A stretch of DNA of 64,000 nucleotides from an uncultured SAR86 cluster bacterium. GTDB lineage: Bacteria; Pseudomonadota; Gammaproteobacteria; Magnimaribacterales; D2472. A model generated the notes under the pieces. The model did not search any database. It worked only from the letters and a program-made list of their open reading frames with translations, and was not told the origin of the DNA. The stretch is from contig CACECP010000001.1 of NCBI GenBank assembly GCA_902558095.1, forward strand, positions 90,050 to 154,049, in the 5' to 3' direction. Numbering within the stretch: position 1 is the first letter of the stretch; every line of letters starts with the position of its first letter. Made by a program: the position numbers and the translations under genes. Of this stretch, positions 2,007 to 35,050 are shown piece by piece.

Positions 2007-2008
2007 TT

Positions 2009-3905: not shown

Positions 3906-3909
3906 AAAA

Positions 3910-5337: not shown

Positions 5338-5351
5338 TATTATCTCCTTGG

Positions 5352-6224: not shown

Positions 6225-6236
6225 ATTTATAAATTC

Positions 6237-9414: not shown

Positions 9415-9447
9415 TTAGTATAATTATAAACATCATATATAAATATT

Positions 9448-12301: not shown

Positions 12302-12309
12302 TTTTTAAA

Positions 12310-14944: not shown

Positions 14945-14968
14945 ATAAAAATTATATCTTAAAAAAGA

Positions 14969-15385
14969 TTAATCTTGTATGTGAATTATTTTGTTTGTTG
15001 CAGATGCAACAGCAACAAGATTGCCATCCTGATAAAGTTCGCCAGTTGTAAATGCCACAGATTTACCTTTTTTTACGATTTTACCAATCGCTGTTGTTTT
15101 TATATTTGGTGAGCAGGACTTAAGAAATTTAACATCAATATCTAATGTTAAAGGTAATGATTTACCTTTAGATTCAAACATTATAAATTGTGACATACAA
15201 GCGTCTATCATACCAGTTACAAACCCACCTTGAATAATAGTTCCATTAGAATGTGTTAACTTTTCACTAGGCGTATATTCATTAATCCAAGCATCTTTGT
15301 TTTCATCATAAAATGCATTAGTAAAACCTAACATAGATAGAAATTCAGGAGCTTCTTGAAAAAATTCTTTAAGATCTTTATTCAT
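14969..15385 (-). CDS. PaaI/4HBT-type hotdog-fold thioesterase
   Basis: 138 aa with motif GTIIQGGFVTGMIDA and a length typical of PaaI-family thioesterases. Confidence 0.7.
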   Translation of the reverse strand: MNKDLKEFFQEAPEFLSMLGFTNAFYDENKDAWINEYTPSEKLTHSNGTIIQGGFVTGMIDACMSQFIMFESKGKSLPLTLDIDVKFLKSCSPNIKTTAIGKIVKKGKSVAFTTGELYQDGNLVAVASATNKIIHIQD

Positions 15386-17728: not shown

Positions 17729-18836
17729 CTTTGGCTATAGAGCTTAAGCAATGTTCTATATTTTGCTTGTTAGATGAGTGACCCATTAATCCGATTCTCC
17801 AGACTTTACCTGCAAGTGTTCCAAGACCAGCACCTATTTCAAGATTATACTCATTTAATAATTTAGATCTTGTTTTGGGATCGTCAATACCCTCTGGAAT
17901 AAATATAGTATTCAATTGAGGCAATCTGTCATCCTTGTTAACCAAAAAATTTATTCCAATTTGCTCTAAGCCATCTCGCAATAAAACATGATTTTCTAGA
18001 TGTCTTTTCCATGAATTCTCTATACCTTCTTCAGAAAGAATTAATAAAGCTTCATGTAAACCATATAAAGCATTTATTGGGGCGGTGTGATGATAAGATC
18101 GTGCTCCCTCACCTTCCCAATAGGACATGATTAAATTTAAGTCATGGAACCAACTTCTAACTTTAGTAGTTCTATTTTGAATTTTCTCTTTTGCTTTTTT
18201 AGAAAAACTTATTGGAGATAGGCCTGGAGATGCTGAAAGACACTTTTGAGTTCCAGAATAAACTGCATCAATTTCCCATTCATCAACTAATAAAGGTACT
18301 CCTGCTAATCCTGTAACAGTATCGACAATAGATAAACAGTTATAAGTATGTGCTAGTTTAGTCAGTGCTTCAGGATCAGATTTAACACCAGTAGACGTTT
18401 CAGCATGAACAAATGCAACTATTTTTGCGTCTTGATTTAGTTTCAAAGTTTCTTCGACTTTATTGATATCAATTTTTGTACCCCATTCGTCTTCTACCAT
18501 AATTGGTATGCCACCATACCTCTCAACGTTTTCTTTCATTCGTTCACCAAAAAAACCATTTTTACAAATGATTACTTTATCGTTTTCTTCTACAAGATTA
18601 GCAAAACAACATTCCATTCCTGCCATGCCTGGAGCAGAAATAGCATAGGTAAGTTCATTTGTTGTTTGAAATGCATATTGAATAAGGCTCTTAACTTCAT
18701 CCATCATTTTTATAAACACTGGATCTAGGTGACCAATTGTAGGCCTAGCCATAGCTTCAAGAACTCTAGGACTTACATCTGATGGTCCTGGTCCCATTAA
18801 AGTTCTTGATGGAGGTATAAAAGATTGAGATTTCAT
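17721..18836 (-). CDS. Class V aminotransferase (serine--pyruvate / alanine--glyoxylate aminotransferase family)
   Basis: 371 aa with the PLP-lysine context SGTQKCLSASPGLSP. Overall pattern is typical of AGXT-type enzymes. Confidence 0.8.
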   Translation of the reverse strand: MKSQSFIPPSRTLMGPGPSDVSPRVLEAMARPTIGHLDPVFIKMMDEVKSLIQYAFQTTNELTYAISAPGMAGMECCFANLVEENDKVIICKNGFFGERMKENVERYGGIPIMVEDEWGTKIDINKVEETLKLNQDAKIVAFVHAETSTGVKSDPEALTKLAHTYNCLSIVDTVTGLAGVPLLVDEWEIDAVYSGTQKCLSASPGLSPISFSKKAKEKIQNRTTKVRSWFHDLNLIMSYWEGEGARSYHHTAPINALYGLHEALLILSEEGIENSWKRHLENHVLLRDGLEQIGINFLVNKDDRLPQLNTIFIPEGIDDPKTRSKLLNEYNLEIGAGLGTLAGKVWRIGLMGHSSNKQNIEHCLSSIAKVI

Positions 18837-18865
18837 TTTAATAATAATACTAGAAATAAATTATT

Positions 18866-20545
18866 TTAATAGCCTGATGCTTGGCCATCTTTTCGACTAT
18901 CTGATGCGCCTATATAGATATCATTTTTTATCATAATTGCCTGATATCCGCCAAAACCTCCTAAATCATATTGAAATTTATGACCAAATTTCTTTAGTTT
19001 TTCTACTTCTATTGAAGATATTCCTTTTTCAAGACTTAGGTATCCTCCATCAGTCATTATCTCACCTGTAGGTTGAGATGATCCAACGTGTCTAATTCTG
19101 GGTGCATCACCAGCTTCCTGTAAGTTCATTTCAAAATCAACTAAGTTCACAACTATCTGAACATGTCCTTGCGGCTGCATTGCTCCTCCCATTAAACCAA
19201 AACTTATAAAAGGCTTATCATCTTTTGTAATAAATGCAGGTATTATTGTATGAAATGGTCTTTTTCCACCAACTAAAGAGTTTTTATGATTTTTATCTAA
19301 ACTAAACATTTCACCTCTATCTTGAAGCATAAAACCAAGATTATTAGGTACCATGCCAGAGCCCATCCCTCTATAGTTACTTTGAATTAATGAAACCATA
19401 TTCCCAAATTTATCAGCAACTGTTAGGTAAATAGTGTCTCCGTCCTCTAAATTTCCTGCATTAAAACTGCTTGAAGAATTTTTGAGATCAATTAAATTTA
19501 ATCTATCCTTTGCATATTCCTTAGAAATTAATTTTGATACTGGAATATTTGAAAAGTTAGGATCAGCATAATACTTAGCCCTGTCTTCATATACTATTTT
19601 TTTAGTTTCTGTAAATAAATGAATATATTCTGCTGAACCAAAACCTAAGTTTTTAATGTCAAAGTTTTCTAAAATATTTAACATCTGAAGAGCCGCTATA
19701 CCCTGACCATTTGGAGGAAGTTCCCATACATCATAACCACGATAATTAGTTGAAACAGGATTAATCCACTCAGGCTTATACATTTTCAAATCCTCAAATG
19801 TTAAGTAACCTCCCTGCTGATTAATAAAATTTGAAATTTCTTTTGCTATATCTCCCTTATAAAAATCTTCACCATATGATTGTGCAATTTTTTTATATGT
19901 TTCTGCTAAAGATGGATTTTTAAATAAGTCTCCTTTTTTTGGGGTACTTCCGTTAGGCATCCATGTTTCTTTAAAATTTGGATAGTCTATAAAGTTAATT
20001 GAAGATAAATTTAAATAATATGCGACTACCTCAGATACAGGAAATCCGTTTTCAGCATAATTTATTGCATCATTAAAAAGAAATTTAAAATCTAGTAAAC
20101 CAAATTTTTTATGAAGTTCTGCCCAGCCACCAACAGCCCCTGGCACAGTTACTGGCAAGGGTCCATATGGGGGTATCTTATCTAAGCCCTTATTTTTAAT
20201 TTTATCTATACTTATGCTTTTAGGTGATGGACCTGAGGCATTAAGACCATATAATTTTGCATCATCTGCGCTCCACACAATTGCAAATAAATCACCTCCA
20301 ACACCACATCCAGTTGGCTCAACTAACCCAAGAACTGCATTTGCTGCAATAGCAGCATCTATAGCATTTCCACCATTTTGTAAGATTGATAATGCGGTTT
20401 GAGTGGCTAATGGATGACTTGTAGCTGCCATCCCATTTGTCGATAAAACCTCTGATCTGCTTGCGAATTCTAAACCTGTAATACGGTCATATGCATTAGA
20501 ATTAAATGCAATAAAAATTGTTATTAATATAATAGAATTTTTCAT
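18866..20545 (-). CDS. ggt: Gamma-glutamyltransferase
   Basis: Autoprocessing Thr context GDTIYLTVADKFGN and motif GLMGGAMQPQGH. Likely start is MKNSIILITIFIAFNSNA (20545), which gives a signal peptide. The track ORF extends to 20560. Confidence 0.9.
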   Translation of the reverse strand: MKNSIILITIFIAFNSNAYDRITGLEFASRSEVLSTNGMAATSHPLATQTALSILQNGGNAIDAAIAANAVLGLVEPTGCGVGGDLFAIVWSADDAKLYGLNASGPSPKSISIDKIKNKGLDKIPPYGPLPVTVPGAVGGWAELHKKFGLLDFKFLFNDAINYAENGFPVSEVVAYYLNLSSINFIDYPNFKETWMPNGSTPKKGDLFKNPSLAETYKKIAQSYGEDFYKGDIAKEISNFINQQGGYLTFEDLKMYKPEWINPVSTNYRGYDVWELPPNGQGIAALQMLNILENFDIKNLGFGSAEYIHLFTETKKIVYEDRAKYYADPNFSNIPVSKLISKEYAKDRLNLIDLKNSSSSFNAGNLEDGDTIYLTVADKFGNMVSLIQSNYRGMGSGMVPNNLGFMLQDRGEMFSLDKNHKNSLVGGKRPFHTIIPAFITKDDKPFISFGLMGGAMQPQGHVQIVVNLVDFEMNLQEAGDAPRIRHVGSSQPTGEIMTDGGYLSLEKGISSIEVEKLKKFGHKFQYDLGGFGGYQAIMIKNDIYIGASDSRKDGQASGY

Positions 20546-20552
20546 ATGTAAG

Positions 20553-21497
20553 TTAATCAATCACAACTAATGTTCCACCATTTTGTTCAGTTAACTCTCT
20601 CATTAGGGTGAGATATTTATCATTATCTTCTGGAGTTGCATAAGCCTGATTCGAACTTCTTGAAGTTAAGAAACCTAAAGCATTAATTCTTACGTATTTA
20701 GATCCATCACTTTTTGTATTTATTCTATTAATTTCAAGCAGTCTTTTATCGACATCTTTATTTTCATTGATATCATCACCAACTATAAAAATACCTACGT
20801 CATCAAATTTTTTTCCATAAAAATTTATAGATTTCTCAATAGCTGGAATTGGGTTACTTTGGGAAACGACATTTACTGTTCGTAATTTATTGACAGCGTC
20901 TATCCTATTAGCTTTGGTAGGTTTTACCCAATTACCTGCACCAATAATAGTTCTTCCAGTATCATTCATAACCATGAATCCCTCAAGGTTTGGAAATGTT
21001 GTAATAATAGTTTCAATTTCTTTAATAACACTTCGCCAAGGAGCTGCATAAAACATGCTTCCAGAATTATCTATAATAAAAATTAAATATCGACTATCTA
21101 TTCTAATTCCACTTGCTACTACTTGTTTTTCAGGTTGTTTTTGGTCTGCTTTTTTTACAATTATTTGACTTTGTTTTAGTTGAGATGTTTCTGTAAGACT
21201 TTCAGCTATATTTGTTCTTTCATTGAGGTTTTCTTTTACTTTGTCTAGTTCTTCTTGAATTGATATTAAGTTCTTCAACTTTGATGTAAGTTCATTATCG
21301 AACTCATTTAGTTCATTATTCTTCGTTACTATTTCTTCCTGTTTCGTTAGAAATAATTCAGCAGTATATTTATTTTCAATAATTTCTACTTCATTAAACT
21401 CACTTATCAATAAAATTAATACAAGCGCACCAAATCCACAAGCCATAATGTCTAAAAATGACATTGAGAAAACTTCAGTCGTTTTCTTTTCTTTCAT
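20553..21497 (-). CDS. g9: membrane protein with ExbD/TolR-like Asp TM helix + coiled coil + vWA-like domain (paralog of g8)
   Basis: N-terminal TM FSMSFLDIMACGFGALVLILLI, then a heptad-rich segment (about residues 45-115), then a vWA start LIFIIDNSGSM. I prefer ATG 21497, which forms an ATGA overlap with the g8 stop. The track ORF begins at a TTG (21506). Confidence 0.7.
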   Translation of the reverse strand: MKEKKTTEVFSMSFLDIMACGFGALVLILLISEFNEVEIIENKYTAELFLTKQEEIVTKNNELNEFDNELTSKLKNLISIQEELDKVKENLNERTNIAESLTETSQLKQSQIIVKKADQKQPEKQVVASGIRIDSRYLIFIIDNSGSMFYAAPWRSVIKEIETIITTFPNLEGFMVMNDTGRTIIGAGNWVKPTKANRIDAVNKLRTVNVVSQSNPIPAIEKSINFYGKKFDDVGIFIVGDDINENKDVDKRLLEINRINTKSDGSKYVRINALGFLTSRSSNQAYATPEDNDKYLTLMRELTEQNGGTLVVID

Positions 21498-22573
21498 GAT
21501 GGCCAATCCTTGCTTGAAGTTAAAAAGCAGCCACCAGTCTGTTTTGAAAATAAAGAATAAGTAAAGGTTGCTTTTGGATCACCTTTTAAAGGTAATAAAA
21601 TTAAATTTAGCTTTGCATTATATGTATTTCGGTCTGCATCATAAAAAATATCTTTATAAGTATCTTTAAAAGCACTAAAAAAATTTAATCTACACTCCAA
21701 ATCAATTAACTCTTCTTTAAGACATCCTTTAATTCTTCCATCTTTTAAACTTGGTGTTGATGATTTCGGTTTTATTGCCTGTGTTGGCAAACCATCGGTA
21801 ATTAAATAAATACTATCAGCATCTTTCCATTGTTCTAATTTTTTAAAAGCAAGCTGTAGATTGGTGCCGTGATCAGGCGCTTCTGTTAACAAATGAACTA
21901 AATGACCTTCAATTTCTATCTTGTTGCGTGAATCTATCCAGTCATTGGTATTTGGCTTTATTTTTAAGTCTTTATTGAAACTAGCTAATATAACTTCAGA
22001 ATCCTCAGGTAAATTATTTACCAACCATCTATAAATTTGTTTTGCTTTTTTCCATTTCTCAGTATTCTGTTTTATAAAATCTGTTTGAACGCTCAAACGA
22101 ATTATTTCAACTAGTTCTTTGTGAAGCATGCTTTCAGAAGAATCTATTAACAAAATAATTTTTTTTCCCTCGACGTTACACCCAGATATATATATTTTTT
22201 TAACAGGTTTATATTTTGTGGCAGCACTTTTCTTGAGTTGTTCCAGGACCGATGTTAGGTTTGTATTTTCATCAACTAAATTATCAATAACAGTATTTGT
22301 TATTTCTGTTTTTAATTTAGCTGAATTGATTTCTGAGCTTACGTTATCAATTGATTTTTGTACGTTAGATAATTCATTAGTTTTTGATTCTATTAAATCA
22401 TCAATGTTTTCAATTTGAGCTTCTAATGGAAGGATTTCATCTTTAAAGCTCTCGGTAAGAGGTGAATATGTAGCCTCTTTTACAAAGATAAACATTAAAG
22501 CTACCGCACCTAATCCACAAGCCATAATATCTATAAAAGATAATGAGAATGGATTTAGTTGTTTACGTTTCAA
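21494..22573 (-). CDS. g8: membrane protein with ExbD/TolR-like Asp TM helix + coiled coil + vWA domain (complete MIDAS)
   Basis: 359 aa with N-terminal TM FSLSFIDIMACGLGAVALMFIF and a heptad-rich linker. vWA motifs are ILLIDSSESM (DxSxS), GTNLQLAF (Thr) and IYLITDGLPT (Asp). TTG start lies 4 nt after the g7 stop, with no in-frame ATG before the TM helix. Confidence 0.75.
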   Translation of the reverse strand: MKRKQLNPFSLSFIDIMACGLGAVALMFIFVKEATYSPLTESFKDEILPLEAQIENIDDLIESKTNELSNVQKSIDNVSSEINSAKLKTEITNTVIDNLVDENTNLTSVLEQLKKSAATKYKPVKKIYISGCNVEGKKIILLIDSSESMLHKELVEIIRLSVQTDFIKQNTEKWKKAKQIYRWLVNNLPEDSEVILASFNKDLKIKPNTNDWIDSRNKIEIEGHLVHLLTEAPDHGTNLQLAFKKLEQWKDADSIYLITDGLPTQAIKPKSSTPSLKDGRIKGCLKEELIDLECRLNFFSAFKDTYKDIFYDADRNTYNAKLNLILLPLKGDPKATFTYSLFSKQTGGCFLTSSKDWPS

Positions 22574-22577
22574 GTAT

Positions 22578-23234
22578 TTATTTAGCTAAAAATCTTGCTC
22601 TTAGCATTACAATAAGGTTATCTTGTTTATACTCAATTCTTGTTATAAAAAACATCAACATAATGCTTAATAAAAGAGCTGTGAATGTTGAGTTAAAAGC
22701 AACACCAAGGCTTGTAGTCATACCTGTAATGTCACCGTCTATTGCTTCAGCAGCTTGAGACAACGCCTCTCCAATTCCTCTGACAGTACCTATAAATCCA
22801 ATTGATGGTATTGCCCAAGAAATATATTTGATAAATGAAAGGTCTAATTGAAATAAATCAAATTTATTTTCAATTAAAATAGAGTATATTTCTTTATTTG
22901 AAGTTTCACTGTCAATTTTTTCGCTTAGCTCTTCGAGCAATGGATCGTTATTATTTTCAAGCGATTTATAGTCATCTTGGAGTAAATAATAATTAAATGC
23001 TCCTATAATTAAGCTCCATAAAAATAATATTAAGCATATTTTTTGTTCGGGGTCTTTTAAAATAACTGAAAAGTGTCTTTCGGGAGAAATATTATTTGCC
23101 TGTGCTATTGCCATGAATTCAAATGCCATTGGATTTATAAGTGCAAGATAAAAAATATGTACAATTATTAGAGATAAAAAGAATGACAAAAAGATAAAGA
23201 TTGAATAATAAGATTTATTAAAATATTTTTTCAT
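22578..23234 (-). CDS. g7: divergent MotA/TolQ/ExbB-family proton channel
   Basis: 218 aa. The C-terminal half carries the family signature IPSIGFIGTVRGIGEAL ... GMTTSLGVAFNSTFTALLLSIMLMFF, directly comparable with ExbB at 1407..2006. Confidence 0.8.
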   Translation of the reverse strand: MKKYFNKSYYSIFIFLSFFLSLIIVHIFYLALINPMAFEFMAIAQANNISPERHFSVILKDPEQKICLILFLWSLIIGAFNYYLLQDDYKSLENNNDPLLEELSEKIDSETSNKEIYSILIENKFDLFQLDLSFIKYISWAIPSIGFIGTVRGIGEALSQAAEAIDGDITGMTTSLGVAFNSTFTALLLSIMLMFFITRIEYKQDNLIVMLRARFLAK

Positions 23235-23362
23235 TATATATCCTTGGGTAAATCAATTGAGTTGTTAATACTTAGTCTATTTTTTAAATTTAAATTATTT
23301 GATTGAGAATAAACAGTACCCGCAACAATAACTATAATAATTAAATATATTAAATACCGCAT
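23234..23362 (-). CDS. g6: unannotated 42-codon ORF, small hydrophobic/secreted peptide
   Basis: Manual translation: MRYLIYLIIIVIVAGTVYSQSNNLNLKNRLSINNSIDLPKDI. The ATG lies 2 nt after the g5 stop and the TAA overlaps the g7 ATG (TAATG). It exactly fills the only apparent gap in the operon. It is absent from the ORF track, in which no ORF is shorter than 61 aa. Confidence 0.55.
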   Translation of the reverse strand: MRYLIYLIIIVIVAGTVYSQSNNLNLKNRLSINNSIDLPKDI

Positions 23363-23364
23363 TT

Positions 23365-25257
23365 TTAGTAGATCCATCTTGCTATCCTAAATCCTATAAG
23401 TTCATTTTCTGCATTACCATATGTCCTATATGATAAACCAAGTTGAAGGGGTGTGGATGAATAATGATTAGATCCTTTTATTACGTGAGTAGTTCCAACT
23501 GTGGGGCCAATATAATCAGTAAAAATTTCAGATGGATCTATTATCTCAATTGAATAAAAGTCATTTACCCATTCTGATAAATTTCCAGTGATATCATTGA
23601 GACCATTTTGATTTGATCTAAATGATCCAACAGGTGATCTTTCTAAGTAACCATCATCATAATCAGGCACAAAATTGGCTAGAATCCCTTCTGTAGTTTG
23701 GTCTGCTATATTTCCAACTAATTTTCTAATTTGCCTATCTGATCCCCATGCATATATTAGCTCACCCTGTGTGGGGTTGTTGGATTTTGCAGCATACTCC
23801 CATTCTGCCTCTGTAGGTAATCTGTAACCATTAGATTTTGTATTGAAATATAATAACCTATCACCTTTGATAATATAAAATTGGTCCAGGCCTTCTTTAC
23901 GACTCAACCAATTGCAAAATTTTGCAGCATCAATCCAAGACACATTATTTACAGGAAGATTAGATGCACTTGTAGATTTTTTAAATTTTTTATATTGATT
24001 TTCAGTAATTAAATTTTTACTTATAAAAAAATGTTTTGTAATTTTTACCTTTTTTTGTAATTCATTAATATCTCTTCTTGACTCTCTTTTTGGAGAGCCC
24101 ATAGTAATTGATCCTGGATTCATAAGTATCAATTTTGAACCAATGGAATTAGTAGAATTATTCTTACTATCTATTAACGACGCTTGTTTATCTGTTAGTA
24201 AATTTTTATATATTTGAACTTTATCATTTAATGGTTCAAATGATTCTCTAATCGATCTATGGCCTAATGCCTCATAACTAATTTTATGTTTAATTTTTTG
24301 GATATCTTTTTTTAATGGTGTTGAGCCAATATACCTACCATTCAAAATCACCTTTGCAGGAACGTTACTGCTAAATTGAACTTCTGCCATATCTTTTTCA
24401 AGAGTTGTGCTTATCGTTTTTGTTTGATTATTAGGACTTATCAATTTATCACGATATCCATATTTCTTTATTTTGATTGTTCCTTTTTTAATATTAGGAA
24501 ATTTTATTGGGGTTATGCCAATATACTCATCATCTAAGAATACTGATGCACTTGGTGGATTTGATGATAGAGAAATTAAATTTTCATCTTCGTCAAGCAA
24601 ATAATTGATTTCAGATTTGTTGTTATCATTAACAAAATACTTAACTTTTTTTTCTTTATACCCGGCTTTTTTTAGAATTATTTCATTATTAGATCTATCT
24701 AAATTTATTGTCAATGGCGTTACGCCAAGCTCAGTATTATTTAAAAAAACTTTAGCATTATTTGGATTTGAAGATATTTGTAACGATTTATCAATTTTTT
24801 TAAGAATTACCGGAATCAATAATTCATCTGTGTATTTCTCTATTTCAAAATTTGATTTATAGGTTAAATGATTATTTGATGTTATTTCGTATGAATGAGC
24901 ACCCTTTTTTAACTTGATATTATCTAATGAATTAAGAACTTTATTGTTAAGAATAAATTTATCATAAGTATCGTTGATTTTAAAAACCACATTTATAGGT
25001 TTCTCAATAAGAATAATTTCTTTATCAGAGTCACGATGGTTGAATTCAATAGTTTTTGATTCATAGCCATATGCTTCCACATTTAGTTTAAATTTTCGAA
25101 AAAAAGAATATACAGTATCATTTATAATAATAGAATTTGGTGAACTAACCTTAAGCTCAGGATATTCTTCTTTATAGTTTATATTTGATGATTTTAAAAG
25201 AAAAAGTGGAATTGCTATTAGCAATGTCACTATAACAATAATTGTTTTTTTGTTCAT
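23365..25257 (-). CDS. g5: membrane-anchored PEGA-repeat protein with C-terminal FGE/SUMF1-like domain
   Basis: 630 aa with N-terminal TM IIVIVTLLIAIPLFLL. There are at least three PEGA units (ISSNPNNAKVFLNNTELGVTPLTINL; LSSNPPSASVFLDDEYIGITPIKF; FSSNVPAKVILNGRYIGSTPLKK). FGE-sulfatase motifs are NNVSWIDAAKFCNWLS, GYRLPTEAEWEYAAK and GFRIAR. Confidence 0.8.
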   Translation of the reverse strand: MNKKTIIVIVTLLIAIPLFLLKSSNINYKEEYPELKVSSPNSIIINDTVYSFFRKFKLNVEAYGYESKTIEFNHRDSDKEIILIEKPINVVFKINDTYDKFILNNKVLNSLDNIKLKKGAHSYEITSNNHLTYKSNFEIEKYTDELLIPVILKKIDKSLQISSNPNNAKVFLNNTELGVTPLTINLDRSNNEIILKKAGYKEKKVKYFVNDNNKSEINYLLDEDENLISLSSNPPSASVFLDDEYIGITPIKFPNIKKGTIKIKKYGYRDKLISPNNQTKTISTTLEKDMAEVQFSSNVPAKVILNGRYIGSTPLKKDIQKIKHKISYEALGHRSIRESFEPLNDKVQIYKNLLTDKQASLIDSKNNSTNSIGSKLILMNPGSITMGSPKRESRRDINELQKKVKITKHFFISKNLITENQYKKFKKSTSASNLPVNNVSWIDAAKFCNWLSRKEGLDQFYIIKGDRLLYFNTKSNGYRLPTEAEWEYAAKSNNPTQGELIYAWGSDRQIRKLVGNIADQTTEGILANFVPDYDDGYLERSPVGSFRSNQNGLNDITGNLSEWVNDFYSIEIIDPSEIFTDYIGPTVGTTHVIKGSNHYSSTPLQLGLSYRTYGNAENELIGFRIARWIY

Positions 25258-27116
25258 GCAACACAGAATCCAGCTGGAACAACCACAACATGATTTATTT
25301 TTCCAACTTGAGGCTGACCATTAATTTTAGGCACTTTAAATTTTGATTTCTTTAATGCTTTTTCAATTATTACTATCACGGCTCTATCATCAGATTTAAG
25401 ATTTTTTGATAGAGTCATTTCCTGATGTACTCTTATTGATGTAACTCTTGATGCTACTACTTTACCAGCTTTATCTACATTTAAAGTAAATGTTAGACGA
25501 AGTGGACTATTTCTGGTTGTTTTTGTACATACAATATTTTTTGAAAAAGATGAGCTTATAATTTTTGCATTTTTAATAAATTTTTCATCTAAAATGTTTT
25601 GTGCAGAATTGGTATTTTGTTGATTGTTGAATATGTTTTCTTCTTGTTCTTCTACGTTTGATAAATCGACATCATCTTTTGTAATATTTCCTGTTTCATA
25701 TATGGAACACTTGTTTGTACATATTGCCGTAATAGATAAAAACTCTTTACCAGGCTCTAAATTAATTTCTTTTCGAGTTGATTGCATACCTCTCTTTTTT
25801 GCTACTAAAACATATTTTCCTGGATAGAGTTTTATATTTTCTTCAGAAAAAGGTTCGTAGTTTCTTGTCTTTTGTATATCTACATAAGTTTCATCATTAG
25901 ATATAAGATTTAAAACTACCATCTCACCATATTTTTTAAATGTCTCGTTCGCTTGCAATATTAGATTAATTAATTTTTTTTCATCTTTGAGAATAAGATT
26001 ATTAGCAACTCCTATAACTCTCTCAAAATTATTTCTTATATTTGGTGAACTTAATCTATCGACATTTCTTAAATATTTATTTAAATCGTCATAAGTTTGT
26101 TTTATAGATGAGGTTCTATTAAATTTTCTAACTAAATCTGAATTTGTTGGGTCAAGTTTTAAGGCTTTGTTATATGCATCTAAGGCTGATTCCCAATTTT
26201 CAGCAGCATAGCTTCTGTCACCAGAATTTGTGAATAGAGTTATATCATAATTTTTCTTTTTAATATCAATTTCTCTTTTGAGTATTGGTAACTCTGAATT
26301 ATTAGGAAGAATCGATTTAGCGTCATTATATAAAGATAGGGATTTAGAAAAATCATTAGAATTTAGAGCGCTATATGCTTTTTTTAAGTTCTGATCAAAA
26401 TAATAAACTTTAGATTCATTTATAATTTTTACTTTAATTTGTTTTGCGTCAGCTCTTTCTGGATCTATTTGAATGGCCTCATCAATGGTTTGAATTGCTA
26501 GACTGTATTTTTTAGAGGAAGAATAGTCTTCTGCCGATGATATTAAATCGGTGACTATATAGTAGTTATCAATACGTTTGTTTATGTTAATTAACTTTTT
26601 GTTTGCTGGGTCAATAGACAATCCTTCTTCAACAAGCGTTTTAGCTTCGTCAAGTTTAACTAAGTCAAAAGCTAATTGTGATCTATCAATAATTTCTAAA
26701 ACTTTTAATCTATTTCTATCATTAAAGCTAATTATTAATTCAGAGGCCTCTTTATATGAATCTCTAGATTTAAAGTAAAATTCATCAAAATAAAATTTAT
26801 CACCATCTTTTTTAAGTGACTCAACCTCACTTAAAATACTTTTAGCTTCAGCCATTTCAACATTTTTGAATGATTCATATAGAGGATCTAATTTTTTTAG
26901 TTCAACTAAAGCTTCATTTCTTTCTTTACAAAGAGGTGAATTAGCCCAAACACCTGTGCAATCAAGGGATGTATTTGGGTCTACAGTAAGAATGTTTTCG
27001 TTAGAATTGGTAATAGGCTCCTCATTGCTACAACTATATAGCAATGAGAAGACAATAATACTTGTTAAACTTTTATAAAATCTCAAATTCATTGGTTTGA
27101 CTAGACTCTGATTCAT
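25254..27116 (-). CDS. g4: TPR-repeat lipoprotein with PEGA-like segment and TonB-C-like C-terminus
   Basis: 620 aa with lipobox IIVFSLLYSC (alternative start 27092, MNLRFYK...). Several TPR-like units are present (e.g. NWESALDAYNKALKLDPTNSDL). The C-terminus LRLTFTLNVDKAGKVVASRV...ALKKSKFKVPKINGQP resembles the TonB C-terminal fold pattern, which is tentative. Confidence 0.6.
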   Translation of the reverse strand: MNQSLVKPMNLRFYKSLTSIIVFSLLYSCSNEEPITNSNENILTVDPNTSLDCTGVWANSPLCKERNEALVELKKLDPLYESFKNVEMAEAKSILSEVESLKKDGDKFYFDEFYFKSRDSYKEASELIISFNDRNRLKVLEIIDRSQLAFDLVKLDEAKTLVEEGLSIDPANKKLININKRIDNYYIVTDLISSAEDYSSSKKYSLAIQTIDEAIQIDPERADAKQIKVKIINESKVYYFDQNLKKAYSALNSNDFSKSLSLYNDAKSILPNNSELPILKREIDIKKKNYDITLFTNSGDRSYAAENWESALDAYNKALKLDPTNSDLVRKFNRTSSIKQTYDDLNKYLRNVDRLSSPNIRNNFERVIGVANNLILKDEKKLINLILQANETFKKYGEMVVLNLISNDETYVDIQKTRNYEPFSEENIKLYPGKYVLVAKKRGMQSTRKEINLEPGKEFLSITAICTNKCSIYETGNITKDDVDLSNVEEQEENIFNNQQNTNSAQNILDEKFIKNAKIISSSFSKNIVCTKTTRNSPLRLTFTLNVDKAGKVVASRVTSIRVHQEMTLSKNLKSDDRAVIVIIEKALKKSKFKVPKINGQPQVGKINHVVVVPAGFCVA

Positions 27117-28257
27117 ATATATCTATGAGTATAGTTTGCCATTGATCAAATTGATTTTGAATATTACCCTCAAGTTTAACTTGAAGATCTTCCATTTCAA
27201 CAACCTTAGGAGCAATTTCTCCATCAAATGACTTTGAAACCTCATTTATTGTTGATTCATGGACTTTAGCTTCTCTAGCATCACCTACAGCAGATGCTAT
27301 CAAACCTGCACCAAGAAGTGCTGCAGTTGAAGCTCCTGCACTATAGTCATAATTGTCACTACTAGAAGATGATGATGCAGCTGCTGCAACAATAAGAGCA
27401 CCAAGAATTGCTTTTCCAGCAGCAGCTCTTTGCGCTTCTCTCTTTTGTTTTGAAGCTGTTAATGCTGCCTCTTGCCAAATCTTATAACTCTCATCCATTG
27501 TGTCTGTGAATGAAATATAATGTTTTTGCATTTCATTTTTAAATTGGGCATCTTTTAATTGAACATTTTGTGCCCTAATAAACATAGGGTCATTCATAGC
27601 AGGAACAAATCCCAATGAATATCTTCCATTTTCAACATCTAAGGACTCATCAAACTCCATCTCGTTGAGTTTTTGTGCAAATCTTAAATCTGTAACTAAT
27701 TCAATCTGTTCAAGGTCTCTTTTTTTAAGCTCTTTTATTATATCGCCAGCAATAGATCTATAGACGACATCAAATGGATCTTTACCTTTATTTCTTATAT
27801 TTTGATAGAAGTATTCGCTTGTTCTATGTTTATAAAGTTTGTTTTTTATTATCGGTTTGCCTGTCGAATCTTTTGCATTTATTAAAAGATGAACATCCTC
27901 TCCGTTGGATTCTTGAATAGTTCCTTCAATCACAATGTCTGTTAAGAATTCGGCATTGGTTGTTACTGCAACATTTGCAAAAGCATTGGTTTCGTTAAGC
28001 GATCTCATCATTTTTACTGCAAACCTTCTAGCTTCTGCTCTTCTTAACTCAGGCCATAAGCCATTTTCACGATCGACCTCATCACTTCCTGATAGGCCTG
28101 GATCAAGCTCTACTATATTAATATCTAATTTAGTTGACATTGTTGAAGCGTCTAATTCAAGCTCTTCATATGTCATAGAATTAGTTATAGGCGCTGTAGT
28201 TTCGCAGCTAATTAATATAAAAGTTAGAGCGAATAAAGTTGTAATATTTTTTAACAT
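27073..28257 (-). CDS. g3: hypothetical lipoprotein
   Basis: 394 aa with signal and lipobox LFALTFILISC. It has an internal Ala/Ser/Gly-rich hydrophobic stretch (AILGALIVAAAASSSSSS...AALLGAGLIASAVG). No recognisable domain. Confidence 0.6.
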   Translation of the reverse strand: MLKNITTLFALTFILISCETTAPITNSMTYEELELDASTMSTKLDINIVELDPGLSGSDEVDRENGLWPELRRAEARRFAVKMMRSLNETNAFANVAVTTNAEFLTDIVIEGTIQESNGEDVHLLINAKDSTGKPIIKNKLYKHRTSEYFYQNIRNKGKDPFDVVYRSIAGDIIKELKKRDLEQIELVTDLRFAQKLNEMEFDESLDVENGRYSLGFVPAMNDPMFIRAQNVQLKDAQFKNEMQKHYISFTDTMDESYKIWQEAALTASKQKREAQRAAAGKAILGALIVAAAASSSSSSDNYDYSAGASTAALLGAGLIASAVGDAREAKVHESTINEVSKSFDGEIAPKVVEMEDLQVKLEGNIQNQFDQWQTILIDIYESESSQTNEFEIL

Positions 28258-28940
28258 TTTAAATTCTCCGGTTTAAGGTTGTTATAGATAGCATATTTTC
28301 TAATAAGCTCGTTTTTTAAAATTGGGTCATTCTCTTTAGCAATGCTTTCTTTAAGCTGCGCAGAAACTTGATTGTTATCCTTTATATTTGCTATACATGC
28401 CGGTACAGCTCCATTGTCAGCCATGTTTGAGTTTGTAGAGTTATTTACATTACCTGAATTTGTATTGGCTAAATTTGTATTGGCTGAATTCATATTGCCA
28501 GAATTTAAATTACCTGAATTTTGATTTCCTAAATTTTGATTTCCTGAATTTTGATTTCCTGAATTTTGACTTCCTGAATTTATATTATTTGCAACATTAT
28601 TATTACTTCCATTATTTAATTTTGGGGTTCCAAGAGTTTTTGATGGAGTGCTTACTTTTGTTTTTTGAACATCTGATCCAGAAATAGATCCACCAGAATT
28701 AGTTTGAGCTACATTGAGATCAGCTGTTTGTGCTAGCTGTGATATACATTCTTGGTTTGCTTGTGCTAAAAGTTTTTTAAAATATAAATCTTTAGCTTTA
28801 ACAATTTCTTCATTCGTCATATTAACTTCATCTATTTCAAGTTTAATCTCTTCATCACATGTTATTTGTATAACTTCTTGAGAATTAACTGAAAAAGGAA
28901 TAATTAAAAAAACAAAAAGTAAAAGTTTAATCATCGTCAT
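28251..28940 (-). CDS. g2: secreted low-complexity protein with N/S/G pentapeptide repeats
   Basis: 229 aa with signal peptide MIKLLLFVFLIIPFSVNS. Its core is SGNQNSGNQNSGNQNLGNQNSGNLNSGNMNSANTNLANTNSGN. Confidence 0.6.
   Translation of the reverse strand: MTMIKLLLFVFLIIPFSVNSQEVIQITCDEEIKLEIDEVNMTNEEIVKAKDLYFKKLLAQANQECISQLAQTADLNVAQTNSGGSISGSDVQKTKVSTPSKTLGTPKLNNGSNNNVANNINSGSQNSGNQNSGNQNLGNQNSGNLNSGNMNSANTNLANTNSGNVNNSTNSNMADNGAVPACIANIKDNNQVSAQLKESIAKENDPILKNELIRKYAIYNNLKPENLKC
28450..28584 (-). repeat. About 9 tandem 15-bp units (pentapeptide-coding microsatellite-like array) inside g2
   Basis: Plus-strand units include ttacctgaatttgta, ttggctaaatttgta, ttggctgaattcata, ttgccagaatttaaa, ttacctgaattttga, tttcctaaattttga, tttcctgaattttga (x2) and cttcctgaatttata. 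Confidence 0.85.
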
Positions 28941-29688
28941 TTTTAATAGCGGGCGGTATTCTTCTTAAATTAATTTCCACCTTAAATATCATTAAATAAA
29001 GAACAGCTGCAGCATACAAAGCAAGTCCATATAGAACATATTGCAAATTTGCATATCCTCTGGCGTTTTTAAAGGCAGATTCACTAATATTGGATTGAAT
29101 ATTATCTTGTCTTGCGGATATATTGTCCTGAAAATCATCAATGTACATTTCTAGAGCATCTCCAACTAAATCAAGTCTGTCATCAAAATTTCCAACCCTT
29201 TTAAAATCATTTATATTTTTAATATCATCAAAAAAATCTATTAATCCAGAAACTAAATCATCGTAATCGTCTCCCATATAACTGTAATTACTTTTAAAGA
29301 ATGCTTCTAAAGTTCTTGGTGTTATATTTTGATATAACCTATTAAGGTTTGCTTGTGAATCATCAAATTGTTTTGATATAGCAGTTCTTAAGTCTACAAA
29401 CCTTTTGTCTACTGGATTTTGATTATTTGATGGCGTCGCTGATCGAAGATTTTGAGGTGCTTTGAATTGTGTTACTGGAGCTTTAGGCTTAGGAAATAGT
29501 TTTGATTTAAAGCTTTCATCATATGTGATACTTGGCAGTCTTCCTTTAGATGTACTAGGTGAATCCCCTATTAAGGTCAAACTATATATAAGTGCGATTA
29601 AAGCACCAATCAGTGCTAAAGAACCTATCGCTATCAAAAAATATCTTGAAATAATAATTAATAGATTTTCAATCTTTTCTATCCACAT
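28927..29688 (-). CDS. g1: hypothetical membrane protein (N- and C-terminal TM helices)
   Basis: 253 aa. TM1 is YFLIAIGSLALIGALIALIYSLTLI and the C-terminal TM is LQYVLYGLALYAAAVLYLMIF. The central region is acidic (DDYDDLVSGLIDFFDD). It is the first gene of the operon. Confidence 0.55.
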   Translation of the reverse strand: MWIEKIENLLIIISRYFLIAIGSLALIGALIALIYSLTLIGDSPSTSKGRLPSITYDESFKSKLFPKPKAPVTQFKAPQNLRSATPSNNQNPVDKRFVDLRTAISKQFDDSQANLNRLYQNITPRTLEAFFKSNYSYMGDDYDDLVSGLIDFFDDIKNINDFKRVGNFDDRLDLVGDALEMYIDDFQDNISARQDNIQSNISESAFKNARGYANLQYVLYGLALYAAAVLYLMIFKVEINLRRIPPAIKNDDD

Positions 29689-29779
29689 AATAATTAAAAA
29701 TATTTATATATGTTTAAAATATATCACTATTCAATAAAATATAGAATATCTTATTGATTTTTATTTATACTTATTAAAT

Positions 29780-30112
29780 ATGAAGAAAATTTTTATCTTG
29801 ATTACTATATTTTTATCAACATCTGTTTTAAGTGATTTTGATAATAAGTGCTCTATTCTTATTACATTGAGGTTTCAATCAAATGAAGATGCATATAAAG
29901 ATGCTTTAGATAAAATAAAACAGTGTGAAAAATACGATATTCTTTCTGTTACAAGCTTTCTTGAAGAATCAATTAGCAAGGTATATATTACTGATATCAT
30001 TCAAAACATGTGTATGTTTAATCATGAAATAGTGACACTTCTAGATGCTAATACTTCCAACTTAAGTTGCGTTTACAGAGGTAAAAGCAGAAACGAACGA
30101 AAGTTTAAATAA
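29780..30112 (+). CDS. Small secreted cysteine-containing hypothetical protein
   Basis: 110 aa with signal peptide MKKIFILITIFLSTSVLS. Divergent from the g1-g9 operon. Confidence 0.45.
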   Translation: MKKIFILITIFLSTSVLSDFDNKCSILITLRFQSNEDAYKDALDKIKQCEKYDILSVTSFLEESISKVYITDIIQNMCMFNHEIVTLLDANTSNLSCVYRGKSRNERKFK

Positions 30113-30134
30113 ATAATATCTTTTAACTTAGTAT

Positions 30135-30524
30135 TTAACTAATACATAAATTTAAACCCATCATTACTAAAACTACAATAGACGGCAACCATATTAAAGG
30201 CCTAATCATTGGGATTTTGTAAATATTTATCACAGCGCCTAATAAATAAGCGATTCTTAAACCAAACCATACTTGTGCAAGCAATAAATTAATGTCGCCT
30301 TTTTCCATAACCACGGATAAAACAGCAAAAGCTAAGAATAATGGCAAAGATTGTCTTAGGTTGTCGCTAGCGGATGACATTCTGGAAGATAAATCTGTCA
30401 TTCCGGAAATATCACCACCTGTATAAGTCCAATTAATAAATGGTACTTTATGTAACGAAAAACTCATTGTAAAAAACAAATGAGCAATGTAAAACATCCC
30501 AACACAAATTATTAAATTTTCCAT
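30135..30524 (-). CDS. MAPEG-family membrane protein
   Basis: 129 aa with about 4 TM. Motifs are ASDNLRQSLPLFLAFAVL (N..E/Q..P.F pattern) and LRIAYLLG...IRPLIW. Confidence 0.55.
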   Translation of the reverse strand: MENLIICVGMFYIAHLFFTMSFSLHKVPFINWTYTGGDISGMTDLSSRMSSASDNLRQSLPLFLAFAVLSVVMEKGDINLLLAQVWFGLRIAYLLGAVINIYKIPMIRPLIWLPSIVVLVMMGLNLCIS

Positions 30525-30552: not shown

Positions 30553-32508
30553 TTAATATTTTAAATTATTTTTTAAATCATCTAAATATGGTTCATAGTT
30601 TTTCCAGTAATCCATTCCACTTGTATATATAGGTTGACGAACTTGCTCAGCACTTGGTGTTTTTACAGATCTTTTAGATTTATAGAATTCAAGACATTCT
30701 TTTTCAAAAGGAATTTCACAATATTCTAAGATATCTCTAACCGAATCCTCAAAGTTATTTACAACATCTTCGTAGTTAATTGAGAGTATTTGATTTGGTA
30801 AAACTTTATTCCAGTGATTCATTAACTCTACATAATTATTATAGTATCCAGCTAAATCTTTTAAGTCGTATGTAAATTCTTGTCCCTCAGCAAAAAGCTG
30901 TTTGAAACATGAAAAACAAGCAGACATTGATGATCTTCTAATATCAATTATTTTTGCATTAGGTAGAATAAGTTTTATTAAACCGATGTGTCTGAAGTTA
31001 TTCGGCATTTTGTCTATAAAATAAGGTTTATCTGATCTAAAGACCTCACTATCCTTTATATATTTATCTCCTATTAATTTTAATTGAGGCGAAGATAAGC
31101 TTAATAATATATCTGGGTATCTTGATTTTTTATCTTGTGACTTTCTTTCGTTTAATCTTAATGCAGTCGAAATAATGTTTGGTAGTTCATGGGTAGGTTC
31201 AACTAGTGAATGAGAAGATAGAATTTGTTCAATGAGGGTTGATCCAACACGAGGCAAGCCTAAAATAAATATAGGAGCCTTTGATTCACTACCCCATTTA
31301 GACTTCATTTCAAATAAATCGTCAGTACATACATCTATCTGGTTTGTACATTCTTTTTCAAAATCATTGACGTTAAATAAAGCTTTGCTTTTTTTAATTA
31401 AATTTCCTTCCTTGTAATGATTAAATGATTTTTCATACTCATTAAGGTCTTCATATGCTTTTCCTAGAGCAAAGTGCATGAAAGTTTTTTCATCTACTGA
31501 AACATATGGATCATTAACCATTTTGTCTATAGAGATCACCTCAGATTCAGAAAAAGTGTATGTTTTAAGATTGGCCAAACTCCAATATGAATCGCCAAAG
31601 TATTTATCAGTTTTATAAGCCGTTTGATAACAGTTAATTGATTTATCTATTTCACCTGAAGTTTTATAAAGGTGTCCCATAGATAACATCACATCCGTAT
31701 TTTTGGGTTCTAGTTTTAAAATATCATTGTAAATATCTATTGCTTCTTGGTATCTATCTGTTCTAAATAAGGCTGTTGATAATAGCTTCATTGCATTTAT
31801 ATTTTTTTTATCTTCATTATAAAAATCTTGAGCATGTTTTAATGCTTCGCCATACTTTTGTCTTTTAGTAAGTATGTTTATATAGTCATATTTAATTTTT
31901 GCATTTTCTGGATCAAATAAAAGCGCGCTTTCCAAAAGAAACTCTGCATCTTCATATATATTCAAATCTCTTCCGATATTAGCAAGCAATCTCATTGCTT
32001 CAATGTCATGAGGGTGATCTCTTAAATATTCTCTACAAATCCTATCTGCTCTTGATAGTTTTCCTTCATGTGTAAAACTAATTACTGTTTTTAATTCAGG
32101 TGGCAAGTCTTTTAGATATATTACATTTTGTTCTACAAATTTTATTAATTCTTCATTTTTGGTTTCTAATGCAAGTATGCCCAACCATGATGATTGAAGT
32201 GATGGATTATGTCTAACAGCTCTCAAGTATGCTTTAAGAGCTTTATTTTTGTTTTTAAGTAAAATATTTGTGTGTCCTATTTCTTGATAGGCTCTTCCAT
32301 AATTTGGATCAACTTGAATCAATTTATCTAAATTAATTAAAGCCTTTTTAGGTTCATTAAGGTATCTATAGCATACTGATGTTAAATAATAAAAATCTTT
32401 TTCTATTAATTGTTTAGAATTTTTTTTACATAAAGATAGCGCGTTTTTAAAATCTTTATTCTTAATAGAATTTTCAATAACTTTTTTAATTTCAGTTCTT
32501 TCGTTCAT
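30553..32508 (-). CDS. TPR-repeat sulfotransferase (copy 1)
   Basis: 651 aa with no signal peptide. The N-terminal half is TPR units. The C-terminal half has PAPS-binding-like motifs ILGLPRVGSTLIEQILSSHS (5'-PSB) and IIDIRRSSMSACFSCFKQ (3'-PB). Paralog of 38662..40254. Confidence 0.8.
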   Translation of the reverse strand: MNERTEIKKVIENSIKNKDFKNALSLCKKNSKQLIEKDFYYLTSVCYRYLNEPKKALINLDKLIQVDPNYGRAYQEIGHTNILLKNKNKALKAYLRAVRHNPSLQSSWLGILALETKNEELIKFVEQNVIYLKDLPPELKTVISFTHEGKLSRADRICREYLRDHPHDIEAMRLLANIGRDLNIYEDAEFLLESALLFDPENAKIKYDYINILTKRQKYGEALKHAQDFYNEDKKNINAMKLLSTALFRTDRYQEAIDIYNDILKLEPKNTDVMLSMGHLYKTSGEIDKSINCYQTAYKTDKYFGDSYWSLANLKTYTFSESEVISIDKMVNDPYVSVDEKTFMHFALGKAYEDLNEYEKSFNHYKEGNLIKKSKALFNVNDFEKECTNQIDVCTDDLFEMKSKWGSESKAPIFILGLPRVGSTLIEQILSSHSLVEPTHELPNIISTALRLNERKSQDKKSRYPDILLSLSSPQLKLIGDKYIKDSEVFRSDKPYFIDKMPNNFRHIGLIKLILPNAKIIDIRRSSMSACFSCFKQLFAEGQEFTYDLKDLAGYYNNYVELMNHWNKVLPNQILSINYEDVVNNFEDSVRDILEYCEIPFEKECLEFYKSKRSVKTPSAEQVRQPIYTSGMDYWKNYEPYLDDLKNNLKY

Positions 32509-35009: not shown

Positions 35010-35050
35010 ATGAATCCTCATAGTTAGTTAATATAAATTGCAAAATAAAC

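Follow-up and report, generated by a model that had tools for sequence, protein, structure and literature searches.

Which proteins does a MotA/ExbB-family channel subunit work with when no exbD, tolR, or motB gene follows it, and what could the resulting complex do? The question is raised by g7 (22578..23234, minus strand), a gene encoding 218 amino acids in a 64,000-nucleotide stretch of DNA from an uncultured SAR86 cluster bacterium (contig CACECP010000001.1), here called the window, with a GC content of 31.0%. The original prediction, made from the letters alone, regarded g7 as a dedicated stator A-subunit for the products of the next two genes, g8 and g9, rather than as a spare Ton component. 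The analysis presented here supports this assignment, as g8 and g9 each carry an Asp-bearing helix of the B-subunit kind and always stand in the order g7, g8, g9. The three genes probably specify a proton motor of the 5:2 type represented by MotAB, ExbBD, and TolQR, which would form one module of an envelope cassette and carry a vWA-headed axle.

When one genome per GTDB species was scanned with a sequence pattern, at least 600 stretches matched, and at least 589 of them were confirmed as relatives. Eighty of these, together with six metagenomic loci, formed a comparison set of 86 loci, each examined with up to 10 kb of flanking sequence on either side. The hosts of the 80 loci were Gammaproteobacteria (SAR92, Woeseiaceae, Porticoccaceae, Pseudomonadales, and others), Alphaproteobacteria, Deltaproteobacteria, Acidobacteriota, and Verrucomicrobia. 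At the protein level, relatives of g7 made up more than 7800 clusters at 90% identity.

The A-subunit g7 and its partners g8 and g9

The Pfam MotA_ExbB model matched residues 108 to 210 of g7 with 46.5 bits (E value, 3.8e−12; cut-off, 22.9). The window also encodes an ExbB (1407..2006, minus strand) that scored 101 bits on the same model. BLASTP aligned the two proteins over 130 amino acids at 23% identity, which was not significant (E value, 0.11); because of this, their kinship rests on the superfamily profile and not on a pairwise match. The peptides that had been quoted for g7 and ExbB were all present in the respective open reading frames (ORFs), and the channel core they were said to share was recovered by the Pfam model and by MAFFT alignment to Escherichia coli references. 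In this alignment, g7 P143/T150/T183 corresponded to TolQ P138/T145/T178, ExbB P141/T148/T181, and MotA P173/-/T209. All three residues were invariant in an alignment of 16 family sequences, where the signature WAIPSIGFIGTVRGIGEAL...SLGVAFNST could be extended to WAIPSIGFIGTVRGIGEAL...GDI..MT.SLGVAFNST.

Separation of the g7 family from canonical ExbB, TolQ, and MotA was judged by hidden Markov model scores and by a count across a whole protein library; the 86 loci themselves contained no canonical homolog. The NCBIfam equivalog models exbB2 (TIGR02805) and tolQ (TIGR02796) gave g7 16.3 and 15.6 bits against cut-offs of 135.35 and 221, respectively, and no match to the NCBIfam MotA or PomA models was listed. 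PADLOC returned ZorA at 14 to 15 bits only. With the window ExbB or with TolQ, ExbB, or MotA of E. coli as query, none of the 86 family ORFs was detected at E values of ≤1e−5; at relaxed phmmer thresholds, TolQ was the nearest canonical relative, weakly detecting 64 of the 86 (best E value, 1e−4). A PDB search with g7 as a single sequence produced only a chance match to a phage tail protein, and the family profile was needed instead. With this profile, Bacillus subtilis MotA (6ysl) was the best PDB match (E value, 0.045), and E. coli TolQ followed at 0.08. Since only 3250 of 1.84 billion representative proteins reached an E value of ≤1e−3 with the family profile (1555 at 1e−10 and 138 at 1e−30), the family is read as a compact, well-separated clade, and tight clustering with ordinary ExbB or TolQ was not seen. 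On these scores, g7 is a genuine, though highly divergent, member of the superfamily and not an ortholog of ExbB, TolQ, MotA, or ZorA.

The structure of g7 was predicted as a single-chain AlphaFold2 (AF2) model (predicted local distance difference test score, 83.4). Four long helices could be identified, at residues 7 to 46, 62 to 93, 113 to 159, and 170 to 215, and the C-terminus lies ∼20 residues past the last transmembrane (TM) helix. The N-terminus is Lys rich, and TM3 and TM4 are homologous to the channel helices of TolQ, ExbB, and MotA; for these reasons g7 is predicted to possess an extra N-terminal TM helix and to adopt a MotA-like topology of four TM helices with the N-terminus inside. 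The three TM helices and periplasmic N-terminus of ExbB and TolQ were not found in the AF2 prediction for g7. Thus, the earlier statement that the N-terminal half of g7 is unrelated to ExbB was essentially right. The acidic string reported between the hydrophobic segments is also present (residues 86 to 135; 13 acidic and 4 basic residues), but the homology of TM3 and TM4 places it in what appears to be the cytoplasmic TM2-TM3 loop, so that it does not represent an insertion. This loop is ∼40 to 45 residues shorter in the clade of the window than in most family members, and g7 as a whole is shorter than the family median of 266 amino acids. The periplasmic TM1-TM2 loop is strongly conserved in the 16-sequence alignment (P35, R53, D61, E63, Q64, and C67), with the invariant Cys67 positioned at the periplasmic end of TM2. 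When the AF2 model was compared with the PDB using Foldseek, the top 50 matches were all A-subunits of 5:2 motors, including ZorA (8vvn), TolQ (8vlw), ExbB (5sv0), MotA (6ysl), and PomA (8zyv).

The two genes after g7 encode B-subunit-like proteins with a transpore-type helix, a coiled coil, and a vWA domain: g8 (21494..22573, minus strand; 359 amino acids; coiled coil at ∼35 to 130 and a conserved C-terminal extension) and g9 (20553..21506, minus strand; 317 amino acids; divergent vWA). Their N-termini, ...FSLSFIDIMACGLGA... in g8 and ...FSMSFLDIMACGFGA... in g9, share the form FSLSF(I/L)DIMACG(L/F)GA. MAFFT alignment with E. coli sequences and the window ExbD matched D15 of g8 and D19 of g9 with TolR D23, ExbD D25, and MotB D32. 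The motif fslSFLD.m.CGFGA was at least 90% conserved across 79 g8-type and 72 g9-type sequences. No His was present in the transpore helix (TPH) of either protein, nor was an SHLS/His TonB-type motif. An invariant Cys (C19 in g8 and C23 in g9) follows the transpore Asp by four residues in the motif D-x-x-x-C-G-x-G-A, a spacing that would place it on the same face of the helix; the aligned ExbD, TolR, and MotB sequences have no Cys at this position.

The vWA status of the two proteins is based on Pfam and HHalign. In g8, Pfam VWA_2 scored at threshold (27.1 bits; cut-off, 27), and the model was matched by 23 of 25 members of the g8 family (best E value, 3.3e−10). The metal ion-dependent adhesion site (MIDAS) of g8 is complete (D144-x-S146-x-S148, T237, and D260), with residues that are invariant or nearly so in the family. 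In g9, D146-x-S148-x-S150 and D244/D245 are kept, Ser replaces the MIDAS Thr, and direct VWA_2 matches were weak (4 of 18 family members). HHalign aligned the g8 and g9 families over 237 columns, covering helix, stalk, and vWA, with 99.8% probability (E value, 4.4e−29), and the two proteins are paralogs. The region from helix to vWA is unconserved in sequence, and its PDB profile matches were coiled-coil proteins (g8 profile positions ∼39 to 142). Profile searches of the PDB with the two families yielded essentially coiled-coil proteins only, which confirmed the stalk and not the vWA fold. The distance between the TPH Asp and the MIDAS Asp, which is 129 residues in g8 and 127 residues in g9, covaried between the two proteins across 62 loci (Pearson, 0.88; Spearman, 0.59; kinship ignored). 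This covariation fits a paired g8/g9 stalk, and we infer that g7, g8, and g9 form a complex.

Gene order was consistent with such a partnership. All 66 loci with at least 4 kb of downstream sequence had one or more TPH-vWA ORFs within 4.5 kb downstream of the g7 homolog, and 59 of the 66 had two, as would be expected if g7-like genes neighbor vWA-bearing proteins with an ExbD-type TM segment, the association proposed at the outset. A separate tally counted 57 loci with two TPH ORFs and 17 with a single one, among them some truncated loci. The order g7, g8, g9 was fixed across Gamma-, Alpha-, and Deltaproteobacteria, Acidobacteriota, and Verrucomicrobia, and the gene of the g6 type, encoding PEGA and FGE domains, ended within 1.2 kb upstream of the g7 homolog in 64 of 70 loci. 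The commonest arrangement, g4, g5, g6, g7, g8, g9, with or without g3, recurred across phyla. The absence of an ordinary ExbD, TolR, or MotB gene after g7 was likewise confirmed: neither g8 nor g9 had a Pfam ExbD or OmpA/MotB match, and a canonical ExbD-like ORF was found in just 1 of the 86 loci, ∼10 kb away on the opposite strand.

The surrounding cassette

Between g6 and g7 lies a mini-ORF (23234..23377, minus strand) of 47 amino acids (MDLLKMRYLIYLIIIVIVAGTVYSQSNNLNLKNRLSINNSIDLPKDI) that was overlooked in the original prediction. At its start it overlaps the 3' end of g6, and its TAA stop codon overlaps the ATG of g7; the product has a signal-peptide-like N-terminus and ends in IDLPKDI. 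An equivalent mini-ORF of 46 to 143 amino acids directly precedes the g7 homolog in at least 70 of the 82 loci with room for one, and independent gene callers had called it in two of them (47 amino acids in L004 and 96 in L001). The homologs consist of a signal peptide, an acidic linker, and a C-terminus of the form f.p.e.i..d..v.FPvDI-COOH, in which the conserved end is ...(F/L)P-x-D-I-COOH. As a speculation, the mini-peptide could serve as a MIDAS ligand or as a plug.

Upstream of the mini-ORF, g6 (23365..25257, minus strand) encodes 630 amino acids, compared with 802 in relatives, and comprises an N-terminal TM anchor, about three PEGA beta-sandwich domains, and a C-terminal domain of the FGE-sulfatase fold. 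Pfam scored the FGE-sulfatase domain at 119 bits and PEGA at 83 bits in three stretches. The best NCBIfam match was GldK, at 92.4 bits (cut-off, 350); in the PDB, FGE enzymes and PorK/GldK structures were equally distant (∼46 bits). The catalytic Cys pair of FGE sits in the C-terminal motif RGGS-x-x-C-x-x-x-x-C. The corresponding region of g6 reads KGSNHYSSTPLQLGLSYR, the family consensus rGssWr....eLRl.yRd has no Cys, and the alignment to Streptomyces coelicolor FGE stops just before the catalytic motif. Since g6 has no FGE Cys pair, a structural or binding role is likelier than catalysis. No lipobox Cys could be identified in the g6 sequence.

The next gene, g5 (25254..27116, minus strand), encodes a TPR protein (Pfam TPR_2 and others) whose N-terminus resembles a lipobox (LLYSC) and whose beta-rich region at ∼400 to 470 is conserved; homologs were detected in 67 of the 86 loci, in fixed order. 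A TonB-C-like domain considered for its lineage-specific C-terminal ∼120 residues had no Pfam support even at E values of ≤10. A conserved lipoprotein of 394 amino acids with an LISC lipobox is encoded by g4 (27073..28257, minus strand), which has homologs in 56 of the 86 loci and no Pfam family match. Its AF2 model (score, 76.5) shows an N-terminal domain, a helix of ∼70 residues, a disordered Gly/Ser/Ala-rich segment (282 to 326), and a small C-terminal alpha/beta domain. Foldseek matches for the N-terminal domain were marginal: the TolB N-domain (E value, 2.3e−3), PelC (1.1e−2), and, more weakly, LptE and GNA1162 (to 5e−2).

The secreted protein g3 (28251..28940, minus strand) has an Asn/Ser/Gly-rich low-complexity middle (NSGNQNSGNQNLGNQNSGNLNSGNMNSANTN) and a helical C-terminal region. 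With the window sequence as query, phmmer detected g3 in 14 of the 86 loci; the L001 counterpart (unk421), which has a long Gly/Ser-rich tract, was detected in 46. The C-terminal region of g3 resembles that of this low-complexity lipoprotein, which lies upstream of g4 homologs, although the link, drawn by eye, is a weaker one. A low-complexity linker seems to be conserved in the g3-type lipoprotein. The run of overlapping genes is headed by g2 (28927..29688, minus strand), a membrane protein of 253 amino acids with a hydrophobic segment near each terminus. The gene shares 14 nucleotides with g3, was detected in 3 of the 86 loci, and had no family match in domain searches; its membership in the system is uncertain.

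Many relatives carry signaling modules in addition. A cytoplasmic protein with a C-terminal FHA domain (451 amino acids in L001) is encoded directly after the g7 homolog in 53 of the 86 loci, an N-terminal Ser/Thr kinase domain is fused to the g5 homolog in 28, and a PP2C gene lies upstream in 12. An OmpA-like gene (OmpA/Gly-zipper) was found downstream in 17 loci. One weak match (E value, 0.016) hints at an N-terminal FHA domain on the g6 homolog of L001, whose cassette with signaling modules spans 1320..15148. In many relatives, the domain content suggests that the machine could be under the control of Ser/Thr phosphorylation. The window cassette contains no kinase, FHA, PP2C, or OmpA-like module and is a minimal, streamlined version from which the signaling modules have been lost. 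A proposed link between loss of the FHA gene and the length of the g7 loop was rejected, as L004 has a long loop and no FHA gene.

From 29688 down to 20553, the window genes overlap or nearly abut. A search of 18500..30300 for promoters and terminators was uninformative: promoter-like sites numbered 57 (70.6 expected), and the coding strand had no internal terminator. A 564-amino-acid ORF (18866..20560, minus strand), gamma-glutamyltranspeptidase-like by eye, starts 8 nucleotides before the stop codon of g9 and for this reason may be cotranscribed with the cassette.

Elsewhere in the window, 1006..1410 matched Pfam ExbD and accompanies the exbB gene described above. The pair had been called bona fide. 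Its assignment to a Ton system is unproven, because both genes scored higher on TolQ/TolR than on ExbB/ExbD models, all equivalog cut-offs were missed, and no tonB or tolA gene adjoins the pair. It is flanked on one side by lolC/lolD-like genes (2009..3905) and on the other by an msbA-like ORF that is cut off by the start of the window (the whole arrangement occupying 1..3905, minus strand). On the other side of the cassette, two paralogs (30553..32508 and 38662..40254) flank an 813-amino-acid ORF (32580..35021) that by eye encodes a TonB-dependent receptor; all three are on the minus strand. The paralogs have a repeat-like N-terminal region and a C-terminal part that is sulfotransferase-like by eye.

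Proposed mechanism and alternative explanations

Direct support for reading g7, g8, and g9 as a proton-driven motor comes from the protein families and their conserved residues, from the paralogy of g8 and g9, from synteny, and from the covariation in stalk length. For its stoichiometry, rotation, ligand, and biological output, we infer the following. Five g7 subunits would ring two N-terminal transpore helices, one from g8 and one from g9, with D15 and D19 facing a ring of g7 Thr150 and Thr183. Proton flow could then turn or pull the g8/g9 pair relative to g7. In place of the ExbD/TolR periplasmic domain or the MotB peptidoglycan-binding domain, the pair would form a coiled-coil stalk of ∼90 residues, estimated to span roughly 13 nm, and each of the two proteins would be capped by a vWA head whose metal site is of the MIDAS type. 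Such sites classically grip an acidic residue of a protein ligand, and the heads may engage another product of the cassette in the periplasm or at the outer membrane. Judging from synteny, the motor would be one module of a conserved envelope cassette in the order g3, g4, g5, g6, mini-ORF, g7, g8, g9. This would supply two lipoproteins (one of them TolB-N/PelC/LptE-like), a TPR protein, an inner-membrane-anchored protein with PEGA domains and a noncatalytic FGE-like domain, and a secreted mini-peptide. The most likely role is to carry energy from the inner membrane to these partners in the periplasm or outer membrane, much as Tol-Pal/Ton or GldLM does.

A more far-reaching version can be offered only tentatively. 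The nine-gene run 20553..29688 could represent a complete trans-envelope machine and a further branch beside Ton, Tol, Mot, and GldLM. Here, a rotating, heterodimeric stalk with vWA heads would engage the FGE/PEGA scaffold, the TolB-N-like and TPR lipoproteins, and the mini-peptide, whose FP-x-D-I end would be a MIDAS ligand or plug, giving a new energized envelope function. Gating by the kinase, FHA, and PP2C modules, which would apply in most lineages, can be likened to the threonine-phosphorylation pathway of type VI secretion.

Several observations count against the motor as proposed. The position of ExbB E176 and TolQ E173 is occupied by Val178 in g7 (alignment to E. coli references), and the Pro of the last TM helix (TolQ P187 and MotA P222) is absent; therefore, gating details may differ. 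The Foldseek matches of g7 were weak, with E values of 0.02 to 0.4 and TM-scores of 0.27 to 0.47, none of them close, and those of g4 were, as noted, marginal. Six loci (L026, L034, L036, L051, L065, and L083) have a single TPH-vWA gene, of the g8 type, despite ample downstream sequence. The heterodimer is therefore not obligatory in the family, and these loci may carry a homodimeric variant. The stalk-length covariation (r = 0.88) is uncorrected for shared ancestry, and in the searched literature no phenotype has been reported for motors of this kind.

Among the alternatives, the one that survives best, although unlikely, is a machine related to type IX secretion and gliding, in which g6, g7, and g8/g9 would correspond to GldK/PorK, GldL, and GldM and drive a ring or track near the outer membrane for secretion or surface movement. 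The order of an FGE-like gene, a motor A-subunit, and a long periplasmic B-type protein recalls gldK-L-M, GldK is the best NCBIfam match of g6, PorK/GldK structures are as near to g6 as true FGE enzymes, and the missing catalytic Cys pair makes a nonenzymatic role likely. However, the GldK score of 92 bits is far below its cut-off, g6 is TM anchored with no lipobox, and its relatives may even carry a cytoplasmic FHA domain (the weak match mentioned above). Furthermore, no GldL, GldM, or GldN match was obtained in Pfam or NCBIfam, g7 belongs to Pfam MotA_ExbB with four predicted TM helices, and the host clades are planktonic, streamlined marine bacteria.

The signaling modules of the relatives bear on a less probable arrangement, in which the vWA heads would fix the B-subunits in place, as MotB does, and a moving g7 pentamer would act on a cytoplasmic target as a mechanosensing or signaling device. 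The FHA protein directly after g7, the kinase-g5 fusions, and the PP2C genes would suit such a device, PEGA domains are described as peptidoglycan associating, and an OmpA-like gene is present in 17 loci, both of which would fit a static anchor. Yet the window system has no cytoplasmic signaling part of any kind, and its g7 has a cytoplasmic loop of only ∼50 residues, which rules out cytoplasmic output as the conserved core function.

A Zorya-type system for anti-phage defense or conflict, with a MotAB-like sensor-motor in the membrane and vWA heads that would sense invasion, is even less probable. ZorA provided the top Foldseek match (8vvn; E value, 0.02) as well as the weak PADLOC matches, and bacterial conflict systems often contain vWA domains (PMC7159879). 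Against this, PADLOC found no ZorB, ZorC, ZorD, or other match for g8, g9, g6, g5, or g4 beyond coiled-coil noise, g7 ends too soon after its last TM helix to have the long ZorA-type tail, and an effector of the nuclease or helicase type is missing. Gene order in the cassette is constant from phylum to phylum, the motor is accompanied by envelope proteins (lipoproteins and TPR and PEGA proteins), and the GC content of the cassette (29.6%) falls inside the window's own range.

Least credible of all is a spare or auxiliary ExbB/TolQ paralog that pairs with an ordinary ExbD/TolR from another locus (for example, at 1006..2006) and has g8 and g9 as unrelated neighbors: although g7 shares a Pfam family with ExbB, has TolQ as its nearest, if weak, canonical relative, and has homologs publicly annotated as "biopolymer transport protein ExbB/TolQ," its exbB/tolQ equivalog scores of ∼16 bits compare with cut-offs of 135 to 221, its family forms a compact separate clade, g8 and g9 bear the B-subunit helix with its Asp and always follow g7 homologs, and canonical B genes are absent from 85 of the 86 loci.

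Comparison with known systems

Proton motors of the 5:2 type power flagella, TonB-dependent uptake, Tol-Pal maintenance, gliding and type IX secretion, and Zorya defense, and each newly understood branch has revealed a new way to deliver energy to the cell envelope. The vWA-headed branch is widespread, and its hosts include abundant bacteria of marine and sedimentary habitats. The minimal version in the window, from a genome with 31% GC, helps to define an indispensable core of motor, paired vWA axle proteins, FGE/PEGA and TPR proteins, lipoproteins, and mini-peptide, and this parts list makes the purpose of the motor a testable question.

Among established systems, Tol-Pal (TolQ-TolR-TolA-TolB-Pal-CpoB) provides the nearest, though weak, canonical relative of g7 in TolQ. 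Several cassette members also have loose counterparts there, namely the TPR protein (compare CpoB), the TolB-N-like lipoprotein, and the OmpA-like gene of 17 relatives (compare Pal). In contrast to Tol-Pal, the roles of TolR and TolA would merge in one protein consisting of TPH, coiled coil, and head, the head is a vWA domain and not a TolA-III or TonB C-terminal domain, and g7 has the predicted extra N-terminal TM helix. The cassette also has no beta-propeller TolB, and all equivalog model cut-offs were missed.

GldLM with GldK and GldN offers a likeness in overall design, as an ion-driven motor in which a long periplasmic B-type dimer extends toward a noncatalytic partner of the FGE-sulfatase fold and the genes run in the order FGE-like, A, B. 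The differences lie in the missing GldL, GldM, and GldN matches, in a g6 that scores 92 against 350 on GldK and is TM anchored rather than a lipoprotein, and in the vWA ends of the B-subunits. A precedent for two B paralogs per A-subunit is the AglRQS gliding motor of Myxococcus, in which a single TolQ-like protein is served by two distinct proteins of the TolR kind. The latter, AglQ and AglS, are short and TolR-like, without coiled-coil or vWA extensions, and their partners are those of the Glt complex.

With MotAB and PomAB, the proposed window motor shares the predicted four-TM, N-in A-subunit, for which 6ysl was the best PDB profile match, and the Asp on the B-subunit helix. It differs in that g7 has no NCBIfam MotA/PomA match, its short loop has no detected match to the rotor-binding domain of MotA, and g8 and g9 are without the OmpA-like peptidoglycan-binding domain.

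Searches of the literature on combinations of FGE, PEGA, vWA, TolQ, FHA, and PP2C yielded nothing on the cassette beyond one report (PMC12204202). In that study (Mol Biol Evol 2025, Fig. 4c-d), a TolQ-like gene with a heterologous pair of "transpore-helix (TPH) vWA" genes was predicted in silico from an Idiomarina loihiensis seed; AlphaFold 3 models of homologous loci placed two Asp residues inside a Thr ring, so that the study independently arrived at the same view of such loci, and the function was unknown (PMC12204202). The text of PMC12204202 makes no mention of the PEGA, sulfatase/FGE, or kinase/FHA/PP2C modules or of the mini-ORF, the sole "FHA" string being part of FhaC. The window shares with these motors a TolQ/ExbB-superfamily gene without an adjacent tolR, exbD, or motB, followed by two different single-pass vWA proteins whose helices carry the MotB/ExbD/TolR Asp (PMC12204202). 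It also shares the lack of an SHLS/His TonB-type motif and the conserved Thr ring of the A-subunit (T150 and T183 in g7), and both the published motors and the g7 family are found in Proteobacteria and Verrucomicrobia (PMC12204202). The window form is shortened, and the likeness is drawn from features rather than from the seed sequences. With every sequence-level defining feature present, the window locus can be assigned, at the level of sequence, to this recently predicted kind of TPH-vWA motor, and both the mini-peptide and the conserved cassette seem to go beyond the published description.

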